This document shows positions 12,701-14,799 of a stretch of DNA of 64,000 bases, piece by piece. Below the pieces are notes generated by a model that searched no databases, was not told the DNA's origin, and worked only from the letters and a program-made list of their open reading frames with translations. The translations under genes and the position numbers were made by a program. The stretch covers positions 40,659-104,658 of the forward strand of contig DFOT01000001.1 of assembly GCA_002376875.1 (NCBI GenBank), in the 5' to 3' direction. Every line of letters begins with the position of its first letter. Positions within the stretch are counted from its first letter, which is position 1. Source of the DNA: Opitutia bacterium UBA3534. GTDB taxonomy: Bacteria; Verrucomicrobiota; Verrucomicrobiia; Opitutales; UBA3534.

Positions 12701-14799
12701 TGAGGGAAGAGCCTGAAGCTTTTGTTGTATTAGCAGAACTTCACAAACCGCAGGCCCAAGACGCAGAGCTGTTATCATCAGCGCCTTCTTTAGGTTCTTT
12801 GAATGCACTCGCCCAGCTCGATGCAGCTAAGGCAGCCCCTCAAGAAGAAGTCACACAAGAAGTGCTTGCAGCTGAAGAGCCTCAGGAGGAAGCTCCTAAA
12901 ATGACAGTGGCTATAGCGGACCCTGTTGAGACTGTTGCCGAAGAGCTGGTTGCTGAAGACGCTTTCGATTTAAACAGTAAGGACGAGGGCTTTGAGGCAT
13001 TTTTAGCTCAGAAAAATGAAGAAACTACGGATCTTTTAAAAGCTCCGGTAGATTTAATGAAAGAAGCAAGTGCGCCCGCAAGTGCTCAGCCTGCTCAGGC
13101 AGAAACCACAGGTAATGATTTTTGGGCAAATTTTGACGAAATGCTCACACAAGTGCCTATTAAGAAGCATACCGAAGTTGCCCAGCCAGAAATTATTGCT
13201 CAGGAAGAATCTACTGAGGTAGAGCCTGTTTTGGCTGAGGAAGTTGCTGAGCCTTCAATTGCTTCTGTAGGAGGGTCTCTTAATGAGGTTTTGGGTGTTG
13301 CAAAACCTCAAGGGGACTTTCTAGAGCAGTTTAAGCAAATTGGCGAACAACTAGAAGCCCCAGCGATTAAGGAAGAGAGTGCGGAGTTAGTACGCGAAAC
13401 AGTGACTGAAGAGCCTGCAGCAGAACTTCTTTTGGACCTCACTCCGGAGGCTCCTCAGGAAGATTCGTTAGCAGCTGTTGTTTTGGATGCGGTTGAAGAG
13501 CTTGAAGCCCCTGAAATTTCAGAACCCCTAGTCGACTTGCCTGCTACCTCAGAATTAGAAGCAAACATCTTGGCTCAATTAGGAAATATTCATATTAATC
13601 CTGTAGAAGAAGTCGTTGCCTATTTAGATGAGCAAATCGAAGAAGAGCTTCCTACTGCAGTAGAACAAGCCCCTGCTCAGATCGTTGAGCAGCCTCAAAT
13701 TGAAGTTGTGGAGCATCTCCCTGCTCAAGAGAATATGCAGGAAGAGACTGTTCCTGTCGTGCAGGAGGAAGTTGCTGAGGTGAAAGAAGTGGTCGTAGCG
13801 TCTACCCCAGCTCAGGAGGATCCTGAGCTTACTTACCCTAAAGCAAGTGCGGCCCCTAAAGCTATAGTGGGTCAAGATAAGCTCCAGCGCCAAGAGCGTT
13901 TAGAGCGTTGGAAGGCCATTAAGGCAAAGCGACTTGCACAGCAAAAAGCTGAGACTCAAGGCGCAGCGTTAGCTCATTCTGAAGAAGTGAATGCAGTAGA
14001 AGATACTTTAGAAGCCCCTGTAAAATCATTTGAAGCGCCTCGAGGCATGACTGAGGCTGAAGAAGCTCAACGTCAGGAAAAATTAGCTAGATGGCGTGCC
14101 CGTCGAAAAGAGTCTACCCAGGAAGAGGCCACGCCGTTTACGATTGCGGATTCTTTCTGGAATACTGAAGAAACACTGGCATCTAACGAGCCTGAAGTTG
14201 CTCCAGCTGCGGCCGAGCCTATCCAGAAACTTACGCGCGAACAGCGCCTCAAGAAATGGCGTGCAGCCCGGGAGGCCCGCCTCCAGAATACAGCCCAAGA
14301 GGTTGAGTTAGCAGATTCTTTCTGGAGGGAAGAAGGCCCTAGTCAGGAGCATAAGGCAACGGTTACAGCACGTACACTAAGCCCTGAGGAGAAGCTCGAG
14401 CGCAAAGAGCGTATCCGCCAGTGGCGCCTTGCTCAGCAAGAAAAGGCCGAGCGTGAGCATCAAGAGGTTGAACTGGGTGACTCTTTTTGGGATCATAATG
14501 CAGATACAGAGTCAGTAAGCCATAAGGCTTTTGTTGCCTCTAAGGAGCTTGCTCAGGATAAAAAGCAGCGCCTCCGTCAGTGGCATGCTGCCCACAAAAA
14601 GCGCAGAAAAGCTAAAGCCTTAGACACGAAACGTTCTTCTTTAAATGAAGAGGAATTGCTCGAGCAAGTTTCTGATAGTGCAGGTGGGGTTACAGAATCT
14701 TCTGTGCTGACAGAGATGGAGACGCTGACTCCTGCTGAAAAAGAAGCACGGATGAAGCAGCTGATGCAATGGCGCAAGGATTGGTTGAATAGCTTATAA
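9769..14799 (+). CDS. sctC: T3SS outer-membrane secretin SctC with a ~1100-aa acidic C-terminal extension
   Basis: Signal peptide. The N0 region [26 protein letters not shown].ASGFF....[27 protein letters not shown] matches the YscC/InvG pattern. Secretin C-domain [18 protein letters not shown]...[11 protein letters not shown] ends near nt 11450. The same frame then stays open for another 3.3 kb. Confidence 0.9.
   Translation: [1676 protein letters not shown]
12055..12466 (+). repeat. internal ~65-aa duplication inside the secretin extension
   Basis: [19 protein letters not shown]...[15 protein letters not shown] compared with [19 protein letters not shown]...[15 protein letters not shown]. 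Confidence 0.6.
13876..14796 (+). repeat. six degenerate basic repeats [E/Q-K/R-L-x-R/K/Q-W-R/K/H..], three followed by (A/G)DSFW, at the C-terminus of SctC
   Basis: [111 protein letters not shown]. Confidence 0.7.

Follow-up and report, generated by a model that had tools for sequence, protein, structure and literature searches.

A type III secretion system secretin with an orphan, selected C-terminal extension that bears six tryptophan-centred repeats

The DNA analysed here is a stretch of 64,000 nucleotides (nt) from Opitutia bacterium UBA3534 (contig DFOT01000001.1, positions 40,659 to 104,658; hereafter the window, to which all coordinates refer unless another locus is named), and its gene sctC encodes a type III secretion system (T3SS) secretin. 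The pore protein itself is of a known kind. What is new is an orphan extension at its C-terminus, which is under selection and bears a sixfold repeat centred on tryptophan. The extension comprises 1120 residues past the ITPR motif at the end of the secretin domain, and its last 310 residues (amino acids (aa) 1367-1676) form the repeat region. Gene, protein segments and repeat units are arranged as follows.

9769..14799, + strand: sctC open reading frame (ORF), 1676 aa, 5031 nt, TTG start and TAA stop
9769..9843, + strand: predicted Sec signal peptide of 25 residues, read from the sequence
9874..11445, + strand: secretin core (N0, two copies of Secretin_N, Secretin), aa 36-559, assigned with Pfam; aligns to InvG 351-529 and MxiD 351-524
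11482..11538, + strand: helix at the S-domain position, aa 572-590; AlphaFold2 predicted local distance difference test score (pLDDT) 73-76, position matching the InvG S domain
11614..11643, + strand: Lys/Arg patch, aa 616-625, read from the sequence
11665..13863, + strand: acidic spacer, aa 633-1365, ~730 aa; E 18.7%, A 13.6%, V 10.8%, P 9.0%; net charge -140
13867..14001, + strand: repeat unit 1, aa 1367-1411, no DSFW
14050..14184, + strand: repeat unit 2, aa 1428-1472, ADSFW at 14146-14160
14215..14349, + strand: repeat unit 3, aa 1483-1527, ADSFW at 14311-14325
14380..14514, + strand: repeat unit 4, aa 1538-1582, GDSFW at 14476-14490
14539..14673, + strand: repeat unit 5, aa 1591-1635, no DSFW; more basic than all other units, at +7 per 18 aa
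14728..14796, + strand: repeat unit 6, aa 1654-1676, truncated; extreme C-terminus of the protein

The repeat units and the extension that carries them

An initial annotation, made from the nucleotide letters and translated reading frames, had reported six basic Trp motifs, three of them followed by (A/G)DSFW, at the very C-terminus of a secretin. The peptides quoted there are the exact translation of 13876-14796 (+), and a pattern search returned the same counts. There are six matches to [LIM]x[RKQ]W[RKH] in the repeat region and none elsewhere in the protein, [AG]DSFW matches three times, and the last unit ends the protein at aa 1676. The motif Trp residues lie at aa 1381, 1442, 1497, 1552, 1605 and 1668, spaced by 61, 55, 55, 53 and 63 aa. 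Counted from this invariant Trp as position 0, the six units carry a basic residue at -7 (R, R, R, R, K and R in order), the residues R, K, R, R, R and Q at -4, Leu at -3 (Ile in unit 4), a basic residue at +1 and a small residue at +2, preceded by an upstream [ST]-P-E-E-K-L cap. Pairwise blastp lengthens the unit upstream to [KH]KAxVxx[KR]xL[ST]PEEKLxRxERLxxW. The central units 2-4 have a second element, (V/F)x(L/I)(A/G)DSFW, whose last Trp stands exactly 22 residues after Trp 2, 3 and 4. No further copies of the motif occur in the six-frame translation of the window.

The repeat is beyond chance. At least three motif matches were found in 0 of 100,000 shuffles of the 307-aa region, and two matches in 133. 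When each unit was scored with a leave-one-out profile of the 23-aa helix segment, the real score was reached by 0-1 of 2000 shuffles for units 1-5 and by 6 of 2000 for unit 6. With the comparison widened to 45 aa, all 500 shuffles stayed below the real score for units 1-4 but not for units 5 and 6, so that these two units share the helix segment only. Composition-corrected blastp between units yielded E values of 5e-8 to 3e-3, with unit 6 matching unit 4 at 0.003.

The protein that carries the repeats had been taken for a T3SS secretin, and profile searches bear this out. The sctC product scores 395.4 bits with TIGR02516 (cut-off 238.45), and Pfam places N0, two Secretin_N and one Secretin domain within aa 36-559 (PF00263, 118 bits; PF03958, 62 bits; PF21304, the N0 model, reaches 25.2 bits and thus stays slightly below its cut-off of 27). 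The best matches of the core in the Protein Data Bank (PDB) are InvG and MxiD. Score, domain order and T3SS gene neighbourhood all agree with an assignment as SctC. Among the possible starts, TTG 9769 alone provides the signal peptide; the public gene calls, of 1659 and 1646 aa, begin 17 or 30 codons further on and hence omit it.

To predict the structure of the extension, AlphaFold2 was run on single sequences with no alignment, and its disorder and helix calls are accordingly soft. Each basic Trp motif is predicted to lie in a helix, as had been proposed initially (pLDDT of 82-95 in 10-residue blocks), and the linkers score around 50 or less. A single continuous helix is predicted from the basic motif through DSFW in units 3 and 4 (aa 1490-1521 and 1539-1575); unit 2 has an intervening Pro, and its DSFW is predicted as coil. 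The predicted template modelling score (pTM) is 0.21-0.23, with no global fold and no packing of the tail predicted.

The helices had also been described as amphipathic, a property that they lack. The hydrophobic moments of Trp-centred 18-mers are 0.07-0.35, and their mean hydrophobicities lie between -0.3 and -0.96; on the Wimley-White scale, transfer to an interface is unfavourable for them (+2.9 to +10.1 kcal/mol, side chains only). Neither in moment nor in apolar face nor in partitioning do they resemble amphipathic membrane-binding helices. They have no hydrophobic face and display a narrow Arg-Arg-Leu-Trp ridge: positions -7, -4, -3 and 0, together with +18 and +22 where present, fall within ~60 degrees of one helical face, and the apolar positions -3, 0, +8, +15, +18 and +22 form one narrow stripe when inspected by eye for coiled coils. 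A basic residue placed at i-4 from a Trp is a textbook arrangement for cation-pi pairing within a helix. The six predicted helices contain 0.02-0.14 i/i+4 opposite-charge pairs per residue and are not single alpha-helices of the ER/K type.

A sharp contrast between a basic repeat region and the acidic region before it had been noted as well. The contrast holds for the content of Lys and Arg (56 of 307 residues, versus 37 of 774 in the preceding aa 596-1369) but not for net charge: with Asp and Glu at 58 of 307 residues, the repeat region has a net charge of -2, versus -134 for aa 596-1369, and is not net basic. Within it, basic helix cores (+2 to +7 per 18 aa) alternate with acidic linkers. 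The acidic spacer is predicted to be disordered (pLDDT <50 in 664 of 840 residues) and contains a diverged internal duplication of 57-61 aa (12064-12234 and 12289-12471; aa 766-822 and 841-901; blastp E 1e-8) with the pattern EVFExPxAWSxE ... PxGLEExPELF. The spacer is therefore likewise made of repeated units with conserved acidic-aromatic motifs. Eight Trp residues of the extension stand in an acidic context (aa 674, 772, 802, 847, 1119, 1464, 1519 and 1574) and eight in a basic one (aa 579, 1381, 1442, 1497, 1552, 1605, 1668 and 1672); Trp 604 is the sole near-neutral one. This split is suggestive of complementary 'stickers', but it is partly trivial given the composition. The helix at the S-domain position also contains L-x-x-W-K-K, but the repeat profile picks up neither this helix nor the Lys/Arg patch behind it.

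Relatives, age and constraint

The initial annotation did not recognise the repeat as a named family, and our searches yielded none. In Pfam, the repeat region matched GH-E only (E = 0.42, noise), NCBIfam gave zero matches, and the PDB, searched with the single sequence and with a profile, gave nothing even at E <= 10. A six-unit profile, run exhaustively with HMMER against 1.84 billion representatives in a search that would miss proteins with just one or two copies, recovered the protein itself (312 bits) and P0020 only. The latter, a 576-aa ORF with nine near-identical copies of ..ENFIKQWKKRWLL.., was rejected as a chance match multiplied by its tandem copies. The exhaustive search was used instead of a word-indexed one, in which the 307-aa tail retrieved nothing, not even itself, so that this null is unreliable; the core alone also missed its self entry, and the full-length query was swamped by acid-rich candidates.

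The secretin core by itself retrieved 111 SctC relatives, of which 0 carry the motif; the nearest named ones belong to Verrucomicrobiota, Kiritimatiellae and Planctomycetota. The tails of SctC relatives span 1 to 458 aa and are Pro/Ala/Ser-rich or charged. In 86 secretin relatives with a recognisable end-of-domain motif, the tail has a median length of 46 aa, the longest measures 458 aa, and none bears the motif. Genome and metagenome contigs, when scanned with the core, yielded relatives that are <=33% identical; their tails measure 1-125 aa and lack the motif.

The nearest relative (43% identity) is encoded by a 601-aa sctC with a tail of 44 aa. Its locus, L102, has the same overlapping CesT-sctC order, including the 4-nt overlap (8001-8004), and sctC is followed there by an unrelated GPP34-domain gene. 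The short tail of this relative suggests that the extension was gained in the present lineage or lost in that of the relative, and that it is not a fused neighbour gene. An origin by fusion with the downstream gene was rejected, since the relative's next gene is unrelated and the profile search revealed no free-standing repeat protein. The housekeeping proteins of the source genome are singletons at 90% clustering; as the lineage is so thinly sampled, the absence of orthologues is weak evidence. In L102, sctC is flanked by a gene of the IpgD family (inositol phosphatase effector; 5442-7325) and the GPP34-domain gene (eukaryotic Golgi phosphoprotein; 9911-10564), both of which are likely eukaryote-directed effectors.

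Charged, helical-looking tails like the present one follow the secretin domain in P0113/P0111 (named Kiritimatiellae), P0094 and P0070/P0067/P0063. Within each of these small SctC clades a single Trp is conserved (..AEWKADL.. / ..EAWAADL..; ..EEEWR.EEK..), and the tail of P0095 contains two copies of DGWQE[VI]S, that is, repeated Trp motifs at a secretin C-terminus as seen here. These tails differ from the present one in their length of 85-161 aa, in having one Trp (in P0095, two repeated Trp motifs among three Trp) and no acidic leash, and neither repeat profile detects them at E <= 10. Judged from their sequences, Trp-bearing tail motifs may recur on secretins from uncultured lineages and form part of a wider, undescribed theme.

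Comparison of the units with each other indicates their age. Synonymous sites are saturated between units (proportion of differing synonymous sites, pS, 0.59-1.0; nucleotide identity 32-52%), the conserved Leu and Arg are encoded by differing codons, and DSFW is preserved through synonymous changes (GAT/GAC, TTC/TTT). The duplications are thus of old date, and maintenance of the motif has been at the protein level. A recent tandem repeat at the DNA level was rejected, as Tandem Repeats Finder returned none and only short matches occur at a spacing of 165 nt.

Constraint was assessed against a strain variant from another assembly, which differs at 118 of 4938 nucleotides (2.4%). The ratio of nonsynonymous to synonymous substitution rates (dN/dS) is lowest in the core, at 0.008, and amounts to 0.136 in the repeat region and 0.153 in the acidic spacer. 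Both the spacer and the repeat region are under purifying selection: in the repeat region, 6 of 18 changes are nonsynonymous versus 78% expected (p = 6e-5 below neutrality), and the spacer lies below neutrality with p = 4e-13. All motif residues are unchanged in the variant. Five residues are replaced in the repeat region, none of them within a motif core; this placement alone is not significant (chance ~0.1). An assembly artefact or a foreign insertion was rejected, since an independent Logan assembly contains the identical sctC, the 2.4%-divergent contig has it intact, and its content of guanine and cytosine is even along the whole gene. We conclude that the extension really belongs to the protein and is both translated and constrained.

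Possible functions of the repeats

The initial annotation proposed a repeated basic helix for binding to membrane, peptidoglycan or an acidic partner, perhaps the protein's own spacer, an interpretation that our results support in part. We tentatively favour a different one, drawn by analogy and held with well below even confidence: the extension could be a flexible acidic leash that ends in multivalent, stereospecific docking helices and serves as an analogue of S-domain, pilotin or anchoring contacts. The repeats would then be the working end of a lineage-specific secretin extension, which, going by secretin topology, probably lies in the periplasm. The pore core and the helix at the S-domain position would be followed by a polyanionic leash of ~730 residues, disordered according to the model, and this by six helices. 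Every helix would present the same recognition ridge (basic at -7, basic at -4 except for Gln in unit 6, Leu/Ile at -3, Trp at 0, basic at +1), to which units 2-4 would add an acidic-aromatic element on about the same helical face, ~33 Å away. These helices might dock onto a protein partner, with a pilotin-like or anchoring envelope protein and the outer wall of neighbouring secretin subunits as candidates. Binding would act by avidity, as there would be six helices per chain and ~90 per ring if the ring is 15-fold as in solved secretins, and its outcome would be to stabilise and position the secretin, as S-domain and pilotin contacts do elsewhere. The strict positional conservation, the invariant +22 spacing and the conserved Ser argue for specific recognition rather than non-specific electrostatics.

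Secretin S domains are sequence-unrelated amphipathic helices that clamp neighbouring subunits, and the extreme C-terminus of a secretin binds its pilotin through a disorder-to-helix transition (PMC10019453). The known pairs of tail and pilotin include InvG 520-562 with InvH (peptide in PDB 6XFL), MxiD 549-566 with MxiM, and YscC with YscW. The present tail resembles these in its location at the C-terminus of SctC, in its short helices beside flexible segments and in a helical extreme C-terminus. A phi-x-K-W is also shared between InvG alpha2 (KLQKW), the YscC tail (VQKW) and the present motif, by happenstance. The present tail differs in that there are six copies of the helix instead of one or two, and in that they lie ~800 residues past the domain end (aa 559 to aa 1367), whereas known S domains lie within ~50; moreover, a separate helix (aa 572-590) occupies the true S-domain position.

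Several observations weigh against such a docking role. The tail occurs in one species-level lineage only, among the data searched. When the repeat region was aligned to the tails of InvG, YscC and MxiD and to its own S-domain segment, 354, 517, 1620 and 139 of 2000 shuffles, respectively, were as good, and the repeat profile has neither a PDB match at E <= 10 nor a seventh copy at the S-domain position. When the 64-kb window was scanned for lipoboxes, no plausible pilotin lipoprotein came up near the T3SS genes. A spacer of 730 aa abolishes the tight geometry used by pilotin or clamp in known secretins, and the present helices, being very polar, differ from the amphipathic ones of known S domains. 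We therefore claim a functional analogy only, and not membership of the family of S-domain or pilotin helices. A derivation of the repeats from the S-domain helix was rejected on the same profile and shuffle results.

Other envelope proteins offer partial parallels. The Glu-Pro/Lys-Pro spacer of TonB and domain II of TolA likewise pass from acidic to basic, are extended and rich in Pro, Ala, Glu and Lys, and bridge envelope layers. They differ from the sctC product in being anchored in the inner membrane, much shorter and without a Trp-centred repeat, and family searches of the present protein revealed no homology to them. Arg/Trp-rich membrane-active peptides, for example the lactoferricin core RRWQWR, have Trp flanked by Arg or Lys as here; the present helices depart from them with one Trp per ~20-residue polar helix, a low moment, acidic surroundings and strict positions.

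Such peptides bring to mind an electrostatic envelope anchor, in which the Arg/Lys-flanked Trp helices would bind non-specifically to anionic surfaces, either peptidoglycan or the head groups of phospholipids in the inner membrane or in the inner leaflet of the outer membrane, with Trp inserting at the interface and tethering the secretin ring. Helix cores of +2 to +7 per 18 aa with one Trp each, the second F-W pair in units 2-4 and a leash long enough to cross the periplasm would all suit this purpose, and other secretin systems depend on accessory proteins for anchoring to the cell wall or the inner membrane: AMIN domains serve this end, and GspB/OutB reportedly anchors a secretin. We nevertheless consider a non-specific anchor unlikely. 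The low moments and unfavourable side-chain interfacial energies speak against it, the region, of net charge -2, ends a -140 polyanion that would be repelled by anionic surfaces, and strict positions, the Ser of DSFW and the +22 spacing exceed what non-specific binding needs. The window belongs to a 1.26-Mb Tara Oceans scaffold (ERZ2782963, scaffold_1) from a sample of surface sea water, whose high ionic strength would be expected to screen charge-driven binding. The same screening would weaken self-association, in which the basic-aromatic helices would join acidic-aromatic Trp motifs, either on their own tail or on an adjacent one, as stickers on a spacer, and thereby compact the tail or link 15 tails into a periplasmic mesh or collar. 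The acidic partners would be the three DSFW elements and spacer motifs including NDFWANFDE. This is improbable in our view, even though nearly every Trp of the extension has an acidic or a basic context, the offset of DSFW from the basic Trp is constant at +22, and basic cores alternate with acidic linkers; an acidic context is partly trivial in a spacer of this charge, the AlphaFold2 model shows no packing (pTM 0.21), and in units 3 and 4 basic motif and DSFW form one continuous predicted helix and no hairpin.

The tail might also have no specific function and represent a tolerated low-complexity expansion of the variable secretin C-terminus, with the repeats as a relic of duplication. The wide variation of related SctC tails in length (1 to 458 aa) and composition, the restriction of the present tail to one lineage and the 44-aa tail of the nearest relative, which shares the CesT-sctC arrangement, are what this explanation would predict. 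It is quite improbable given that dN/dS is 0.14-0.15 and significantly below neutrality in spacer and repeats, that motif positions are kept despite saturated synonymous sites between units, and that an open frame of 3.3 kb is maintained in all assemblies. Lastly, since T3SS loci target eukaryotes, the tail could be exposed at the surface or shed, its Trp motifs binding membranes or proteins of a host (protist). The eukaryote-directed domains (IpgD, GPP34) beside sctC in the relative's locus fit this idea, and acidic Trp motifs loosely recall eukaryotic short linear motifs. As export of the C-terminus is not known for any secretin, we regard a host-directed module as very unlikely.

The docking reading can be carried further, to a self-contained arrangement of 'leash and hooks' that is not known from any secretin and that we think improbable in this specific form: 15 polyanionic leashes per ring, each with six Arg-Arg-Leu-Trp hooks and with DSFW counter-motifs, would dock on an envelope partner or on each other, replace pilotin, GspB or AMIN anchoring in cis and form a periplasmic collar round the injectisome. 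Secretin C-termini control assembly, stabilisation and piloting and are the least conserved part of these pores. If the extension is functional, it would be a natural experiment in how a T3SS ring is positioned or stabilised without classical accessory proteins; if the repeat is a docking element, it would be a new short recognition helix for envelope biology and could aid in reading the many tails still lacking an explanation on secretins of uncultured bacteria like those of the Planctomycetes-Verrucomicrobia-Chlamydiae (PVC) group. Its practical weight is limited: it is carried by a single, sparsely sampled marine lineage.

Genes around sctC

Two CesT-family chaperone genes enclose sctC.

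9317..9772, + strand: CesT-family chaperone gene, immediately upstream of sctC
14813..15262, - strand: CesT-family chaperone gene, immediately downstream of sctC and convergent with it

The TTG start of sctC and the stop of the upstream CesT gene overlap by 4 nt (TTGA, 9769-9772). Upstream of sctC lies a T3SS translocon operon with a TPR_3 class-II chaperone, an SseC-like translocator, a 304-aa ORF and the CesT chaperone. The 304-aa ORF (8191-9105, +), which separates the genes for the SseC-like translocator and CesT, has no match in Pfam; by its position it could be a second translocator. Farther along the window, a family-B DNA polymerase homologue adjoins dnaA, and a Snf2-family helicase lies just beyond (32849-35026 (-), 36555-37985 (-) and 38756-41236 (+)). 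From this arrangement, the window probably includes the replication origin region.

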